DNA of 64,000 bases, from NCBI GenBank assembly GCA_964491455.1, contig CAZBFM010000001.1:149388-213387 (forward strand), read 5' to 3'. Shown piece after piece: positions 5,686-22,723 of this stretch. The position numbers were made by a program, and so were the translations under genes. Position 1 is the first letter of the stretch. Every line of letters starts with the position of its first letter. Source of the stretch: an uncultured Candidatus Saccharibacteria bacterium (GTDB lineage Bacteria > Patescibacteriota > Minisyncoccia > 2-02-FULL-40-12 > GWA2-44-9). The notes below the pieces were generated by a model. The model was not told the origin of the DNA, did not search any database, and worked only from the letters and a program-made list of their open reading frames with translations.

Positions 5686-6545
5686 AAGCACTTCAGGAAT
5701 ATTTTTTGCAAGCGAGACACGAGGGCTGGGCAATCGGCCACTTCAACTTTGCGACAGCAGATGTGTTGCGTGCAATTGTGGAAGGAGCGCAGATTGGCGG
5801 AGCGCCATGCGTGATGGTTGGTACGAGCCCGGGCGAGGCCGAATTTCTTGGCCTTGATACTGCGGTAGCTCTCGTGCGGGCAATCCGAGAAGCTTCGGGT
5901 TTTCCCGTGTTTCTGAATGCTGATCATTTTAAGTCGTTTGATGCCTGCAGAGCCGCTATTGATGCGGGGTACGATACGGTGCTGTTTGACGGCGCCTCGC
6001 TGCCCTATGACGTGAATGTGATCGAGACGCGTCGTTTGTGGCAGTATGCACAGTCAAAGCGAGGGAGCTATATGATAGAAGGCGAGCTCGGCGTAATGCG
6101 AGGTTCAAGTGAAATGCAAAAGAGCATCGCTATTAGCTCGAGTGATTTCACAAAGCCTGAGCAAGCTGAAGATTTTGTGCGTCGCACGGGAGTAGAGCGT
6201 CTAGCTATAGTCTTTGGAAATATTCATGGAATTGTAACGGATCAAAAAGAATCACTTGATCTCGATCACCTCCGCACGGTGCTGAATGCGGTCCCTGATG
6301 TAGCGATCGTGCTGCATGGAGCATCAGGGATTCCTGATGATATGATTGTGGACGCTATACGGGGCGGAATAACTAACGTGCATTTCAACACAGAGCTTCG
6401 CGTGGCGTATCAAAGAGGTATTGCGGAGACGATTGAAGCGCAACCCGACCAAACAACTCCTTACAAGTTACTCGCTCGCGCCGATCAGCACGTGCGCGAT
6501 CTCGTCGCGCAGAAGACTCGTGTTTTTATGCAAAGTAATTCGTAG
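5682..6545 (+). CDS. fba: Class II fructose/tagatose-bisphosphate aldolase
   Basis: GWAIGHFNFATADVLRAIVEGA, LNADHFKS, VFGNIHG, LHGASGIPDD (class II aldolase motifs). Confidence 0.85.
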   Translation: MKALQEYFLQARHEGWAIGHFNFATADVLRAIVEGAQIGGAPCVMVGTSPGEAEFLGLDTAVALVRAIREASGFPVFLNADHFKSFDACRAAIDAGYDTVLFDGASLPYDVNVIETRRLWQYAQSKRGSYMIEGELGVMRGSSEMQKSIAISSSDFTKPEQAEDFVRRTGVERLAIVFGNIHGIVTDQKESLDLDHLRTVLNAVPDVAIVLHGASGIPDDMIVDAIRGGITNVHFNTELRVAYQRGIAETIEAQPDQTTPYKLLARADQHVRDLVAQKTRVFMQSNS

Positions 6546-6673
6546 CTACTCCTGTAAAGTTACCCACAGTTTACACTGCTCTTAGGTCTGATATATTCGT
6601 TCGAACTCTTATGCGATCTAAGCCATCGTTGGCGTCGCATCGATGAGTCTGTATACAAATAAATCTATAATTC

Positions 6674-8419
6674 ATGAGCACGTCGTTTCGTGGTTGGAGA
6701 TCAGTCATAACGGGAACGGTGATAGTTATAACGATTGTCATGCCGTTTTTGCGTGGGATATCTAGCTCCGAAGCAGTTGTTGTTGCGACTACACTGTTTA
6801 CGGATGGTTTCGAATCAAATAATTTAAACAACTGGACATCAGTTGGTAGTGGATGGGGCGTATCTAGTAGTAATCCGCACACTGGCTCTCGAAGAGCGGG
6901 CATAAGCAGTGATACCGGGCAAAATCCGAATGAATTACGCAAGAATGTTTCGACCGTCGGTTACGATGGCATATCATTTGACTATTGGTATTTAGCGAAT
7001 GACTTAGAATCACAAGATTATACATTTGCTCAATGGTCATCCAATAGCGGTAATACATGGAATACCTTATTTTCCATTAATAGCACCGTTGATGACAATA
7101 CGTGGCATCACAACACGCATTCTCTTCCTGTTGATGCGGAGAATCTAGCTGCGTTTCGAATCCGATTCCTGGCAAACTTAAATAGCTCGAATGATTTCGT
7201 CAGAATTGATGACGTCACCGTTTCTGGATACGCGATTGCAACGCCAACGCCGACACCGAGTAATGAGCCAACTCCGACGCCGACACCGAGTGATGAGCCC
7301 ACCCCCACTCCTTCACCGTCCGCAACACCTCTGCCGGGATCGCGTATGGCGTATGGAACGCTTATCATAGAGAAGGTGATACGAGGTGGCACGAAGACCT
7401 TTACGGATTTTGCATTTGTCTTTGGAGGCGGAGAGAATGATCATTTTAATTCCGGAGGCAGAAATGAATACGTGCGTGCAGTTGGAACATACCTTGTTAG
7501 CGAGCCACCAACAGAGGGTTTCACCGCAACGTTTGGTGGAGATTGCGACGAACAAGGCCAAATAAGTGTCCTGGAAGGTCAAGCGGTCACGTGTGTGATT
7601 ACAAACACATATGCAACTTGGCAGGAGGGTGATCCAATCGCAACGCCTGCGCCAGCGTCACCAGTCGCCCCAAGCACGCCTCAATCGCAGGAGGAAGCAT
7701 CTTCCGAGCCAGTAGGGACATTGGTGGTCCAAAAGATCATCGTATTGTCATCCGCAAGCTTTACTGAATTTGGATTCACGGTAGCAAGTCAAACGCAACA
7801 ATTTGAGGCGGATGGGACGAATGCCGTAAGCCTGACTCCCGGTCAGTATACCGTTCAGGAGGTCGTTACTCAGGGATTTGAGGTGACATATTCCGGTTCT
7901 TGTGATGTAGGCGGCGTGGTGACTGTCGAACTGGGGCAGACTTCTACGTGTGTGATTACTAATACGTTAGCAGTCGGCGGTTTTAATCCAGGCGAAATCC
8001 AATCAACGCCGACTCCCAGTCCGACACCATTGGCTACACCAGCTCCACGTGCAGCTACAAGAGAGCGCGTTGATGCGGGGCGAGTGAGTGATGAGTCATC
8101 AGGAGTAACTCTCACACCCACGCCAGAAGCATCAAGATCTGATGAGCCATCGAATGATCAGGCAGCAGCAATCGGTACATTCTTGGGTCTTGATGTGTGC
8201 TCGAGTGCCGGACAGACGATGTGGTGGATTACTATGTTTGGACTCGCTATATTCTTGATGTGGTTTGGACGAACTCGTGGGTCGTATCCATTACTCATTC
8301 TTGCGTATTTTGTCATTTGGGCACTCTGGGCTGTTCAGATATGTTCATTTGGATTTGGCTGGATGCCGGCAATCATGGGAGGTGCAAGCTGGCTTGTCGC
8401 GGTGCCTCGTAAGTCGTAA
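6674..8419 (+). CDS. Secreted/cell-surface protein with an N-terminal beta-rich domain, PT-rich linkers, two tandem Cna-B/prealbumin-like domains and a C-terminal two-helix membrane anchor
   Basis: N-terminal hydrophobic signal/TM. PTPTPSNEPTPTPTPSDEPTPTPSPS linkers, also seen as a DNA direct repeat at about 7240..7320. Two paralogous ~90-aa domains end in ...TCVITNT. The C-terminus MWWITMFGLAIFLMWF...AIMGGASWLVAV is hydrophobic. Confidence 0.75.
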   Translation: MSTSFRGWRSVITGTVIVITIVMPFLRGISSSEAVVVATTLFTDGFESNNLNNWTSVGSGWGVSSSNPHTGSRRAGISSDTGQNPNELRKNVSTVGYDGISFDYWYLANDLESQDYTFAQWSSNSGNTWNTLFSINSTVDDNTWHHNTHSLPVDAENLAAFRIRFLANLNSSNDFVRIDDVTVSGYAIATPTPTPSNEPTPTPTPSDEPTPTPSPSATPLPGSRMAYGTLIIEKVIRGGTKTFTDFAFVFGGGENDHFNSGGRNEYVRAVGTYLVSEPPTEGFTATFGGDCDEQGQISVLEGQAVTCVITNTYATWQEGDPIATPAPASPVAPSTPQSQEEASSEPVGTLVVQKIIVLSSASFTEFGFTVASQTQQFEADGTNAVSLTPGQYTVQEVVTQGFEVTYSGSCDVGGVVTVELGQTSTCVITNTLAVGGFNPGEIQSTPTPSPTPLATPAPRAATRERVDAGRVSDESSGVTLTPTPEASRSDEPSNDQAAAIGTFLGLDVCSSAGQTMWWITMFGLAIFLMWFGRTRGSYPLLILAYFVIWALWAVQICSFGFGWMPAIMGGASWLVAVPRKS

Positions 8420-9315: not shown

Positions 9316-9825
9316 CTATTGTAGGAGCTTTCCCCATGCAGCTCGTTGGCGAGGGGAGAGATGCTGCGCTGACGATATCGCGTCTTGGAGATTGCTTACT
9401 GGAAACGATAGCACATCATTGGGCTCGAGATTGCGACTGCCAATTTCGTTTGCGAGAGCTGAGGCAGCCGCAACGCGCTCAATGCCGTCTAGCTTGATAA
9501 TGGGGTCGCTTGATGCGCAGTACAGGTCAATCGCACGCGACGACAAGGAATAGACCCCGTCACCCGGTAGGGCAAGCACATCGATGGAAGCGGCAACGGG
9601 TGTCTCGCGAGGAGTCTCATACGAGTCAGTCCGTGCGGGGAGCCGGTCCCAAAGAATTGAAGCTGTAAGCGCAATAATAGCAATCAGAATAATTGTTGTT
9701 ATCAACGTGTTGCTATGTGAGCGAAGCCACGTATGCAACTGGCCTCCCCATCCTGGACGAGGCGTGAATAGAGGACCGGGAAGTGAAGCGCCGGTGGGGT
9801 CCTGGCGTGGATGGAGTGAGTTCAT
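9316..9825 (-). CDS. Hypothetical single-pass membrane protein
   Basis: ORF with an internal TM ([19 protein letters not shown]). It overlaps the RF1-like gene stop by 4 nt, which suggests an operon. Confidence 0.45.
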
Positions 9826-10655
9826 GTCGTGGGCGGAGAGTCTTTGAGTCCATCCTGTAGAGCGGTGATGATTCGATCAAGGTCACCATTAAGAATCTTA
9901 GGAATGTTGCTCCAGCTCTCTTTGATGCGGTGGTCGGTTATGCGATCTTGAGGAAAGTTGTAAGTGCGAATCTTTTCGCTACGATCGCCAGTGCCGACTT
10001 GTTTTCTTCGCTCTTCTGAAACATTTCCTGTTTGTTCAAGACGATTCAATTCGGCAAGCTTGGCGCGCAGAAGCACCATCGCCTGTTCTCTGTTGGCAAG
10101 CTGTGAGCGTTCAGCACGCGCGGAGATAACGATACCAGTGGGTTTGTGGTGGACACGTACTGCCGTTTCGACTTTGTTGACATTCTGTCCTCCGGGACCT
10201 CCTGCGCGAGAGAATGTGACTTCGATGTCGCTTGGATTAATAAAGACTTCCTGCTCGGTTGCTTTCTTGAGTACGGCAACGGTAGCGGTGCTGGTGTGTA
10301 CGCGGCCGGACTTTTCTGTTTCAGGAACGCGTTGCACGCGATGGGCGCCGGATTCATTTTTCATCGCGTCATAGGCGCCGGTCCCCGATATTTCGAATGA
10401 TCCATACTTAAGTCCACCGAGTGACGTATCGTTTGATTCGATCGTCGAGAACTTCCATCCTTTTGCAATGGCATATTTCTTGTACATTTGAAACAATTCC
10501 ATCGCAAAGAGGGCGGATTCGTCACCACCCGCTCCTGGTCGGATCTCGACAATAGCTTCATTGCCAGGCGCAGATGAGCCGCCACCCTTTTGTTTCTTGG
10601 CCTGTTCTGCCCAGTATCGCCAGTCCTGTTGAAGATTTGGATCGATGTCCTCCAT
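9822..10655 (-). CDS. prfA: Peptide chain release factor 1-like protein lacking N-terminal domain 1
   Basis: [27 protein letters not shown] (PxT-type decoding motif) and [13 protein letters not shown] (GGQ). The [15 protein letters not shown] block that sits near residue 115 in canonical RF1 is here at residue 42. An in-frame stop lies 9 codons upstream of the start. Confidence 0.8.
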
Positions 10656-10670
10656 GGTGATGCAAAGCAA

Positions 10671-10693
10671 AAACCGCCCAAGGCGGTTGTTTG
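10671..10693 (-). terminator. Terminator hairpin between rpmE and the RF1-like gene
   Basis: aaccgcc-caag-ggcggtt followed on the minus strand by TTTTG. Confidence 0.5.
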
Positions 10694-10697
10694 CCGT

Positions 10698-10922
10698 TTA
10701 CTTCGTACTTGCTGGCGTCGTGCTCTTCGCGAGACGCTTTTTGAAGCGATCGACGCGACCGCGAGTATCTACGATTTTCTCGGTGCCTGTGTAGAACGGA
10801 TGGCAGCTCGAGCAAATGCTTGCATTGAGCTCTGCCTTGGTGCTACCCACGATAAAGGAGTTGCCGCATGCGCAAACCGCCTTTGCTTCGGGATGATAGG
10901 TTGGGTGGATATCAGCTTTCAT
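10698..10922 (-). CDS. rpmE: Ribosomal protein L31
   Basis: [46 protein letters not shown]. Only the last 74 codons of track ORF 10698..11486 are L31. Confidence 0.9.
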
Positions 10923-11343
10923 AGTCTGTACAGTATAGCAGGTCTTCGGCGGTATGTCTAGGACGTGATGCGAGTGCATTGACGCTAAGCCGTCCCGATA
11001 GTATAGTCGTTGAGAGGTACTAAGTATGAAAGAGGGAAATCCGGTTGGGAGTGAGAGCCCGTATTCGCCATGGAAAGAGTTCGTCTTCATTCTGTCGATT
11101 CTTAGTTGCGTGGCTCTGTACGTGAAATGCACAGGGTAGTGGTCTTCCACGCCCCGATTTGTTCGGGGCTTTTCTTTTGGGCGTAGATGTGGTATTCTCA
11201 TCGGGCTTTCAATTGCCCTCGACAGGCGTTGGAAACGTATAAAACTCAATGATTTGTTCGATAGTGTGGTGTGTGGGGCCCCTTGGGACCCAGAGACGCG
11301 CCTACCCCCGCGAGGGAAGCACAGCATCGAGCACGAATTATTC

Positions 11344-12069: not shown

Positions 12070-12522
12070 ATGAGTGACGTTGCAATCATCAAGGAGCTTC
12101 GAGACGAGACCGGACTTTCGTTCGACAAGATAAAGTCCGCGTTAACTGAAGCGGGAGGCGACAAGGCGAAAGCACTTGAAGTGCTCAAGAGTCAGGCCGG
12201 TGCTGCTGCGGCAAAGAAATCTGATCGCGCGGTGAAAGACGGAGCGATCGGTTCGTATATTCATAGCACCGGAAAGGTTGGTGCAATGGTGAGCATCGGA
12301 TGCGAAACTGATTTCGTTGCTCGCAATGACGACTTCAAGGCGCTTGCGAAGGATTTGGCGATGCATGCGAGCGCAATGCGACCTGAGTCTGCGGAGGAGA
12401 TGCTCGCACAGCAGTTCGTCAAAGAGCCAGAGATAACCGTTCAGGATGTTATCAACCGTGCGATTGCCAAACTTGGCGAGAATATTCAGCTCGTCGGCGT
12501 TTCGGTGCTCGTAATCGGATAA
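12070..12522 (+). CDS. tsf: Elongation factor Ts, short (150 aa) form
   Basis: N-terminal UBA-like VAIIKELRDETGLSFDKIKSALTEAGGDKAKALEVLK. Sits immediately downstream of rpsB. Confidence 0.85.
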   Translation: MSDVAIIKELRDETGLSFDKIKSALTEAGGDKAKALEVLKSQAGAAAAKKSDRAVKDGAIGSYIHSTGKVGAMVSIGCETDFVARNDDFKALAKDLAMHASAMRPESAEEMLAQQFVKEPEITVQDVINRAIAKLGENIQLVGVSVLVIG

Positions 12523-20556: not shown

Positions 20557-21567
20557 GTGAAGTACCTGGAGCGCACTCTCTCGAGTCAGATGACAATGGC
20601 CGCCATACTCATGGCGGCCATTGTTACAACGGCGTTTTTTTGGTTGTACGTCCAAGTACTACCCCGTAGCGTTCAAGCGCCTCGATCACATTTCTTAATT
20701 GAAAGTGGTTGGGGTGTCTCGCGTGTCGCACTTGAGCTCGATCGTGGCGGCATTATCCGCTCACGAATGGCAATGATGCTAGTTATGGGACTGCGCTATC
20801 GAGGGCAAACCTTGAAGGCGGGCACCTATGAGCTTTCGTCGGCTGACTCTACTATAGCAATTTTGGATCGCATCATTGCGGGCAGCTCTCTATCGAATGA
20901 TATTGAAGTTACTATTCCGGAGGGCATGAATGTCTGGCAGGTTGACGCTATGCTTGCCGGGCGCTCGTTGATTCCACGCGGTGCGTTTGCTCGCGTAGCC
21001 CTTACTGATGAGGGTTATCTATTTCCGGATACATATCGTTTTGATGCGCGGGTGGCTAGTAAGAGCGGTACTGATGAATTTGTAAGGACGTATCATGACA
21101 CTTTGAAGGAGGCATTTACTGACAAGGCGAGCGGGTTTACGCGTGAGCAGATTGTCATAGCATCGATGCTTGAAAAGGAAGCAAAATCGACGGAAGACAT
21201 GCGGTTAGTTGCTGGTATTATTGCTCATCGACGAGAGCTTGGGATGCCACTACAACTTGATGCTACAGTTGCCTATGGTTGGTGCATGAGGCAGTGGCAG
21301 GGAGTCGACCGGGCAGCGGGTTGCGATGTGACCGATGCCCCGATTGCAAGAGAAATACTACGAGATGGTCCCTATAATACCTATACGAGGTTGGGACTGC
21401 CCATAGGGCCGATATCAAGTCCCGGCATTGCATCGCTCGAAGCGGCCGCGAATCCTCAAGAGAGCGAGTATCTCTATTATCTTTCCACACGCGACGGCTC
21501 TCGGATTATTTACTCAACAACGCTTGCTGAGCACAACAGAAACAGGACGATATATTTGGGGCTCTAG
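20557..21567 (+). CDS. mltG: Endolytic murein transglycosylase MltG (YceG-like)
   Basis: N-terminal TM and YceG family features (LIPRGAFARVAL..., EGYLFPDTYRF, SMLEKEAK). Confidence 0.8.
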   Translation: MKYLERTLSSQMTMAAILMAAIVTTAFFWLYVQVLPRSVQAPRSHFLIESGWGVSRVALELDRGGIIRSRMAMMLVMGLRYRGQTLKAGTYELSSADSTIAILDRIIAGSSLSNDIEVTIPEGMNVWQVDAMLAGRSLIPRGAFARVALTDEGYLFPDTYRFDARVASKSGTDEFVRTYHDTLKEAFTDKASGFTREQIVIASMLEKEAKSTEDMRLVAGIIAHRRELGMPLQLDATVAYGWCMRQWQGVDRAAGCDVTDAPIAREILRDGPYNTYTRLGLPIGPISSPGIASLEAAANPQESEYLYYLSTRDGSRIIYSTTLAEHNRNRTIYLGL

Positions 21568-21734
21568 TGCTTTACAGTTGAAAGGGAACCTGATATAGTA
21601 TACCTATAACCGTAGACAGCAGGTGGGGTTCAACCCCGTAATTCCTGCCGAGGTGGATGCCTTTTTATAAGGCGCACTCTGGTCGATCTGCGGTGAATAC
21701 GCAGTTTTTTATTATAAAATTGCGAAAACCAACT
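21568..21734 (+). promoter_or_regulatory. Putative rplJ leader/autoregulatory region
   Basis: A 167-nt untranslated region upstream of rplJ containing hairpin gcagg-tggggttcaaccccgtaattc-ctgc. Assignment is by position only. Confidence 0.25.
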
Positions 21735-22349
21735 ATGAAAACAAAAGAACAAAAGAAAGTTGCGATCGATGCGCTTGCCAAGGCGCTTCCTAGCTCTACG
21801 ATGACAGTTTTTACGACCTTTGCTCGCGCAGGGGAGTCGGGGCTTTCCGTTGGGCAAATGGAAGTATTGAAGCGAGCGCTTCTGAAGGTAGATGGAGAGT
21901 ATGTTGTAGCGAAGAAGACGCTGGTGCAAAAGGCGCTTACTGATCTCAACTACGATGGTGTCGACGTGTTTGGCATGGATGGCTCCATGGGGCTCGTATT
22001 GGGTCATGGTGACGCGTTTGCCGTCGCTAAGGTCCTTTACAGCTTTGCAAAGGAGAACCCTGCTCTAAAGCTGTATGCAGCGTGGATGGATGGACATGCC
22101 GTGTCGCATACCGAGCTGATTGATATCGCAACACTTCCTAGCCGTGATGAGCTTCTTGCTCGATTGCTCGGAATGTTGAAATACCCACTCTCTTCATTGG
22201 CGGTGGTGCTGAATCAGGTTGCGTTAGCGAAGGGAGCGGATGCGGCGACTCCAGCAGTGGAGGTTGCTCCGGTCGCTGAGGCAGAAGCACCTGCGACAGT
22301 CGTCGAAGAGCCAGTTGCAGCAACCGCAGAAGACGTAGTAACACAATAA
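21735..22349 (+). CDS. rplJ: Ribosomal protein L10 with Ala/Val/Glu-rich C-terminal extension
   Basis: [18 protein letters not shown]..., located immediately upstream of rplL. Confidence 0.85.
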
Positions 22350-22351
22350 TA

Positions 22352-22723
22352 TTGAATATGGACTCAACAACATTTATCGAAGCAGTCGAGAAAATGACAG
22401 CTTCCGAGCTCAATGCACTCGTGAAGGCATTGGAAGAGAAGTTTGGTGTTTCAGCCGCGGCGTTCGCAGCAGCGGCTCCAGCAGCCGGTGGTGCCGCTGC
22501 CGCAGAAGAGAAGGATGCGTTTACCGTTGTCCTCGCAAAGGCCGGTGAGCAGAAGATTCAGGTTATTAAAGTGCTTCGTGAGCTTACCGGGCTTGGTCTC
22601 AAGGAGGTTAAGGACATGACGGACAAAGAGGGCTCAGTTGTGAAGGAGGGCGTTAAAACAGCCGATGCTCAGGATTGGAAGAAGAAGATTGAAGCGGCAG
22701 GTGGAGTTGTGGAGCTCAAGTAA
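22352..22723 (+). CDS. rplL: Ribosomal protein L7/L12
   Basis: [30 protein letters not shown]...[22 protein letters not shown]... Confidence 0.9.

Follow-up and report, generated by a model that had tools for sequence, protein, structure and literature searches.

The rpmE–prfA locus

The 64,000-nucleotide stretch of DNA analysed here (the window) carries on the minus strand, at 9822..10655, a prfA gene that starts with ATG at 10655, ends with TGA at 9824..9822 and encodes a release factor 1 (RF1) of 277 residues without domain 1, as seen in Pfam and NCBIfam matches, alignments to PDB structures and an AF2 model. Residues 1–31 (10563..10655, minus strand) form an N-terminal stub, delimited by homologue alignment, profile–profile comparison and AF2, in which an aromatic motif is followed by a Gly/Ser-rich linker. 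The domain 2 part of the decoding superdomain comes next (residues ~32–162, 10170..10562, minus strand, from alignment to the T. maritima and T. thermophilus RF1s) and carries GAGGDE at the tip of alpha-5, the PET tripeptide (residues 111–113) and the RVHTS block. The catalytic GGQ motif, located by sequence and alignment, is found at residues 155–157 (10185..10193, minus strand). Downstream, a 169-residue ORF without a Pfam match (9316..9825, minus strand) overlaps the prfA stop codon with its own start (ATGA) and is probably co-translated with prfA; it contains one hydrophobic segment, in line with the small membrane protein noted there in the preliminary description of this DNA.

Upstream on the same strand lies rpmE (10698..10922), which encodes the 74-residue ribosomal protein L31 (Pfam PF01197, profile positions 1–64 of 65, E 3.5e-28). 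It is separated from prfA by a spacer of 42 nt (10656..10697, minus strand), in which a sequence scan revealed a terminator-like hairpin (10688..10672, AACCGCC-TTG-GGCGGTT and a T-run) ending 16 nt before the prfA ATG. Since no promoter-like site is seen between this hairpin and the ATG, prfA is probably transcribed by read-through from the rpmE promoter, for which a promoter-like site is present 5' of rpmE at 10960/10932. The rpmE stop codon, TAA at 10700..10698, is in frame with prfA and stands 14 codons ahead of its ATG, and the sole earlier start-like codon, a TTG at 10670, would add at most five residues. The preliminary description was right about an in-frame stop but counted nine codons, which is the distance to the TTG and not to the ATG; the difference is of no consequence. 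Its further point, that there is no room upstream for a longer N-terminus, holds, because the L31 gene ends 42 nt away with its TAA in frame, and no other frame offers a domain 1 either.

The two genes share a reading frame, with only the TAA and 14 codons between them, and in two relatives (L082 and L083) the spacer has disappeared altogether (TAAATG), which suggests that RF1 is expressed from the L31 transcript, by read-through or by coupling. We rejected an L31–RF1 read-through fusion: the frame is common to both, but the hairpin and the stop codon intervene and the stop is kept in relatives. The prfA start lacks a Shine-Dalgarno sequence, which we do not count against it, because SD-like sequence (GGAG, GAGG or AGGA within 20 nt upstream) precedes only 6 of the 62 ORFs of at least 100 residues; on these start calls, which are crude, the organism appears to use Shine-Dalgarno pairing rarely. 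Another shortened translation factor, EF-Ts, is encoded in the neighbourhood of prfA (12070..12522, plus strand); it has only 150 residues, matching Pfam EF_TS positions 1–70 of 204 together with a UBA-like N-terminus, and is of the same length in the relatives L081, L082 and L083.

Domain architecture

The match to the Pfam PCRF profile covers positions 100–194 of 194 only (residues 32–126), and the RF-1 domain PF00472 is complete (residues 135–243, profile positions 3–116 of 116, E 5e-38). The protein scores 351.1 bits against the NCBIfam prfA model NF001859 (profile positions 104–340 of 347 aligned; equivalog cut-off 400) and 339.6 bits against TIGR00019 (positions 113–349 of 361; cut-off 423.25), so neither cut-off is reached, because profile positions 1–103 and 1–112, respectively, are unmatched. 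These are nevertheless by far the best-scoring families, followed by RF2 (221 bits), PrfH (77 bits) and ArfB (51 bits), and the alignment to RF1 and RF2 profiles proposed in the preliminary description therefore comes down on the side of RF1. An assignment to RF2 is contradicted by PET in place of SPF and by the TIGR00020 score of 221 bits against a cut-off of 370. PrfH is contradicted by the TIGR03072 score (cut-off 166.65), by the canonical RF1 decoding residues and by the absence of an adjacent rtcB. ArfB/ICT1, defined by a stand-alone GGQ domain with a basic C-terminal tail, matches residues 134–169 only, with a cut-off of 100 bits, and the window protein keeps the decoding domains 2/4.

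The best PDB matches are RF1s: residues 31–266 align to T. maritima RF1 85–320 (E 1.7e-80), residues 32–267 to T. thermophilus RF1 105–340 and residues 33–265 to E. coli RF1 110–343. The alignments to these solved structures place the conserved core 73–77 residues closer to the N-terminus, in good agreement with the shift of about 73 residues noted from the motifs beforehand. In an alignment of 24 sequences the relatives share without variation the PET tripeptide, the RVHTS block, GGQ and the switch-loop block of the window protein, together with E46, Q108, P111, T113, H120 and T121, so that the complete set of RF1 decoding elements (PxT, the GxxE of the alpha-5 tip, the glutamine before PxT and the H-T of RxHTS) is found together with a GGQ-bearing RF-1 domain and its switch loop. 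We dismissed the idea that PET is an unusual 'anticodon', since full-length RF1s often carry PET or PDT. Domain 1, the helical part at the N-terminus, is absent, with PCRF profile positions 1–99 unmatched. The AF2 model, built with 24 relatives and of moderate confidence (pLDDT 70.7 overall), shows one short helix, a low-confidence linker, the usual domain 2/4 sheet and domain 3, and superposes best on RF1 structures in the compact form (1RQ0, TM 0.71; 6ORL, 0.71/0.79). The ORF is thus a naturally minimised class-I RF1, as first described, with the motifs of domains 2–4 intact and domain 1 unmatched.

Could domain 1 be provided in trans, from the other half of a split gene or through an unrelated partner, for instance the co-translated membrane protein? 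The 169-residue ORF does overlap the prfA stop in a position that is kept in close relatives, and domain 1 is so poorly conserved that a search could miss a diverged copy. A domain-1 HMM derived from 60 RF1s and run against the six-frame translation of the window, however, returned as its best match a segment of a DnaB-like ORF at E 0.0014, which is at the level of chance, and the hydrophobic segment of the 169-residue ORF is of the membrane type. This ORF is kept only in the close relatives L081–L083, where its identity of ~42% compares with 84% for RF1, marking it as fast-evolving and lineage-specific, and it is missing beside the other short RF1s, including a sister clade that has neither an N-terminal stub nor this neighbour. 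We therefore consider a partner in trans very improbable.

Conservation across the clade

The preliminary description asked whether related genomes share the truncation, and they do. The best 120 database homologues, 65–93% identical to the window protein, all have 249–296 residues (median 269), with 17–64 residues before the GxGGxE block and a methionine start in 118 of the 120. With all 120 in this range, the truncation goes far beyond what chance or error could produce. Where the source is named, the homologues come from Parcubacteria/Paceibacterota MAGs, for example Candidatus Yanofskybacteria, and NCBI labels them only as 'PCRF domain-containing protein'. Judging from these sequences, the short RF1 is a clade-wide trait of one branch of the Parcubacteria/Paceibacteria, beyond one genome.

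The gene order, with tsf-rpsB diverging from rpmE-prfA-unknown ORF-L25, is common to three independent assemblies (L081–L083: the NCBI assembly GCA_020852375.1, a 270-kb JGI contig and a Logan assembly), in all of which the start codon of prfA is identical. The rpmE–prfA spacer of L081 holds a similar hairpin, and in L082 and L083 the DNA reads ...AAG TAA ATG GAA GAC..., so that the prfA start abuts the rpmE stop. In the window, as in most CPR loci, L31 is encoded upstream of prfA, and since rpmE precedes prfA in CPR loci of every length class, the short gene is by its position the orthologue of ordinary prfA.

It might still be argued that a real domain 1 has been lost through faulty assembly or sequencing, a frameshift or a miscalled start, an assembly error having been named beforehand as something that would undo the finding. 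Such errors do occur in MAG assemblies, and several of the 'short' matches in a library of representatives at 50% identity are fragments or fusions created by gene calling. Here the upstream DNA is occupied by a complete L31 gene, the start and the length are identical in independent NCBI, JGI, ENA and Logan assemblies with the same gene order, the rpmE TAA is followed directly by the prfA ATG in L082 and L083, and the stub itself is conserved at the protein level. We regard the artefact as effectively refuted, its remaining probability being negligible. The search of the 50%-identity library was not used as evidence, since short representatives are indistinguishable from fragments there; most of its 150 representatives are full length, and those with the core at the N-terminus that are nevertheless long are fragments or gene-calling fusions with PrmC or ABC-type sequence.

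A length series of RF1 N-termini

Measured as the number of residues before GxGGxE in 80 species-representative genome loci, the N-terminal part of RF1 forms a graded series. It amounts to about 115–122 residues in bacteria outside the CPR, about 84–92 in a large CPR clade, 17–64 in the clade of the window (the window, L001 and all database matches) and 10–28 in a second short clade (L002, L004, L005, L006, L019 and L023). Coverage of the PCRF profile shrinks in the same manner, from positions 1–194 through 37–194 (L011), 69–194 (L015) and 96–194 (L014) to 100–194 in the window and 101–194 in L004. A rough neighbour-joining tree of the shared core, which carries no support values, places the two short clades as sisters, and on this tree the window protein groups with the other CPR RF1s and not as a separate family. 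In the sister clade, whose records are named Liptonbacteria, Jorgensenbacteria or 'Patescibacteria group', RF1 has the first strand of domain 2 at its very start, as in the 239-residue protein of L004, which begins MIQRIIIEIRAG. The genes of L002, L004, L006 and L023, found at ~10001 in each locus (893..1573 in L004), encode proteins of 239–250 residues without any stub.

An aromatic stub in place of domain 1

In the clade of the window the N-terminus preceding the core is short but patterned. A WxxW motif occurs in 85 of the 120 best homologues and an aromatic-xx-aromatic motif in 104, usually in the form YDWKQW or DWRYW (also WKQW), followed by a basic, Pro- or Gly-rich linker. AF2 predicts a helix over residues 12–23, with a pLDDT of ~66. 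A profile–profile alignment (hhalign) against full-length RF1 covers residues 27–273 only, and so detects no homology between the stub and domain 1.

A stub of the same kind is present outside this clade. The RF1 of L014 (MFVH01000015.1, a Nomurabacteria MAG; gene at ~6297..7076) has 31 N-terminal residues that begin with MDWQEWKK, with a DWxxW motif like that of the window's clade. Its core is close to those of L013 and L011, which keep ~85 N-terminal residues (84 in L013), and since a 31-residue stub is attached to such a core, this comparison of sequences indicates that domain 1 was probably lost more than once. The stub of L014 could reflect an independent loss with convergence or recombination of the 5' end. 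At the other extreme, P0100, a 296-residue member of the window's clade, has 64 residues before GxGGxE, beginning MSIEDLQQELKSIEQQL; by its sequence this N-terminus resembles the opening helices of a normal domain 1, and P0100 may represent an intermediate or a form with an internal deletion.

Other termination genes

No second release factor paralogue was found by tblastn of RF1 against the window and the 80 genome loci, and the 64-kb window contains no RF3-like GTPase and no prmC-like (NPPY) ORF. The preliminary description had remarked that no prmC follows prfA, which is true but not specific to the short form: prmC is adjacent to prfA in almost no CPR locus, those with longer RF1s included, and a search of 10 kb on either side of prfA revealed no PrmC homologue in any CPR locus; its absence is therefore uninformative. 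The same can be said of the absence of RF2 from the window, which tblastn and the ORF scan bear out. Stop codon usage among 61 ORFs of the window is 26 TAA, 21 TAG and 14 TGA (prfA itself ends in TGA), and conserved genes are uninterrupted under table 11; with this standard code, RF2 must be encoded outside the window.

As a baseline for RF2 we ran one metagenome scan with a degenerate SPFDxxxRRHTSF pattern, without a CPR RF2 seed, which returned 120 RF2 loci. None of them is recognisably a CPR locus by ORF comparison, and every RF2 gene in this non-CPR baseline that is not cut by a contig end has at least 111 open codons before GxGGxE. One candidate for a CPR RF2, L110, was dismissed, as it encodes leucine-biosynthesis-type enzymes. 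The window also contains rplJ-rplL (20557..22723, plus strand, with an Rfam L10 leader at 21592..21719), preceded by a gene for a YceG/MltG-like protein; since rplK-rplA is not in front of rplJ-rplL, L11 must be encoded elsewhere.

The survey bears on whether the short protein is the RF1 of its organism at all. A specialised extra paralogue, acting in rescue or quality control with a full-length RF1 encoded elsewhere in the genome, would have precedents in PrfH and ArfB, which are release factor homologues without domain 1 that are active in rescue, and our view was limited to 64 kb here and to 10 kb on either side of prfA in relatives. The short gene, however, sits behind rpmE in the same position as the full-length CPR RF1 genes, its product falls among other CPR RF1s on the core tree, its decoding residues are those of canonical RF1 and not altered as in PrfH, its scores against the PrfH and ArfB models are 77 and 51 bits against cut-offs of 167 and 100, and rtcB is not nearby. 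In addition, no second RF1 locus from the same assemblies is present among the 80 genome loci, with the complete chromosome OY970354.1 as one of them. An extra paralogue therefore seems to us a very unlikely explanation.

Comparison with known release factors

Compared with canonical RF1 (TIGR00019/NF001859; T. maritima 1RQ0, T. thermophilus 4V63, E. coli 2B3T), the window protein is 45–60% identical over domains 2, 3 and 4 and shares PxT, the GxxE tip of alpha-5, RVHTS, GGQ, the switch loop and, as in many CPR loci, the upstream rpmE. It differs in lacking the helical domain 1 of ~75–100 residues, in place of which it has the 31-residue aromatic stub and linker. Other CPR and Thermotoga RF1s, with ~85–95 residues before GxGGxE, follow the same trend of N-terminal reduction but keep most of the helical domain, of which the window's clade has none that is detectable. 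PrfH (RF-H; TIGR03072; 7SA4, 9MOR) is likewise a natural release factor homologue that has kept GGQ without domain 1, but its decoding loops are altered, it is paired with RtcB, and it works on damaged ribosomes instead of at stop codons. In ArfB (YaeJ), ICT1 and C12orf65 a GGQ domain also works without domain 1; these proteins, however, lack the decoding domains 2/4 as well and have a C-terminal tail that serves as a sensor of the mRNA channel.

By analogy, the closest functional counterpart of the window RF1 is the engineered truncated RF1 of E. coli, made alongside a truncated RF2, which has the same layout of domains 2–4 (Mora, Zavialov, Ehrenberg & Buckingham 2003, Mol Microbiol 50:1467, as summarised within PMC1586002). 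According to that summary, the E. coli factors without their N-terminal domain retain codon specificity and release activity in vitro, the truncated RF1 works in vivo, and the stimulation by RF3 is lost. Those factors are laboratory deletions in a host that has RF3, whereas the truncation described here is natural, lineage-wide and accompanied by a conserved stub. In a search of full-text literature of incomplete coverage we found no published natural housekeeping RF1 without domain 1 in the CPR.

Proposed mechanism

We propose, with good though not full confidence, that the protein is the housekeeping RF1 of a Parcubacteria lineage (Paceibacteria, Yanofskybacteria-like) in which domain 1 has been lost, and that it carries out ordinary termination without the contacts to L11 and RF3. 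Domains 2 and 4 would read UAA and UAG in the decoding centre via the PxT loop, the alpha-5 tip and the RVHTS block, and domain 3 would place GGQ in the peptidyl-transferase centre, leading to peptidyl-tRNA hydrolysis as in any RF1. We infer this stop-codon-dependent activity from the intact motifs and from the behaviour of the truncated E. coli RF1. Domain 1 was said in the preliminary description to mediate the interaction with RF3, and PMC3677378 indeed reports contacts of this domain with both the N-terminal domain of L11 and RF3. Most likely, then, the short factor would bind and leave the ribosome with neither the L11 contact nor recycling driven by RF3, its exit occurring by spontaneous and probably faster dissociation, with an affinity for the ribosome that may be altered. 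The aromatic and basic stub (DWRYW...KK), held on a flexible Gly/Ser linker, would replace domain 1 and may provide a small substitute contact.

RF3 is missing from 72 of 191 genomes, according to PMC1780047, among them Bacillus, Mycobacterium and Mycoplasma, and weaker binding of the release factor is proposed there to compensate for its absence. However, since many such bacteria keep domain 1, the absence of RF3 is not enough to account for the missing domain. A reviewer comment included in PMC1586002, according to which E. coli RF1 shows no activity on ribosomes without L11, suggests that the contact with L11 matters elsewhere.

The truncation could also be a mechanistically meaningless result of neutral genome streamlining, with the stub as a leftover linker. 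CPR genomes are reduced, the EF-Ts encoded in the window is short as well (150 residues), domain 1 shrinks stepwise across the CPR and the sister clade has no stub. On the other hand, the aromatic motif is kept in 104 of 120 homologues, and a similar DWQEW stub is found in L014, with a core from a clade that otherwise keeps ~85 residues, suggesting selection. We think it improbable that streamlining is all there is to it, and this reading overlaps with our explanation rather than excluding it.

A more far-reaching version of our proposal is that termination in these organisms has been rebuilt without domain 1 of class-I factors altogether: RF2 would be truncated too, RF3 would be absent, the L11 contact would be dispensable and the WxxW stub would be a new minimal anchor on the ribosome that arose more than once, since it is present both in the window's clade and in L014. 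We consider this possible but rather doubtful. If true, these natural release factors would represent a defined minimal termination system and a probe of the role of domain 1 in other bacteria.

Implications

Loss of domain 1 is confined to this branch among the RF1 and RF2 genes that we sampled: the domain is kept in all ~35 RF1 loci from outside the CPR and in all ~105 complete metagenomic RF2 genes, RF3-less lineages included. The window RF1 is real, conserved and mechanistically interpretable, and should be moderately surprising to a termination specialist. That the only detectable RF1 of a large natural lineage has no domain 1 agrees with the dispensability of this domain for decoding and catalysis in the laboratory. 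There is also a practical consequence: because these proteins fall below the NCBI prfA cut-offs and are labelled only by their PCRF domain, automated surveys could wrongly score their genomes as lacking RF1.

For the biology of the CPR bacteria, the finding adds translation factors to the known list of their reduced ribosome components. A related organism, Minisyncoccus archaeiphilus, is now available in co-culture, as mentioned in PMC12281837. With N-termini of ~118, 85, 60, 30 and 10 residues before the core, nature has provided a series for dissecting how much the contacts with L11 and RF3 contribute to the speed, accuracy and recycling of termination.
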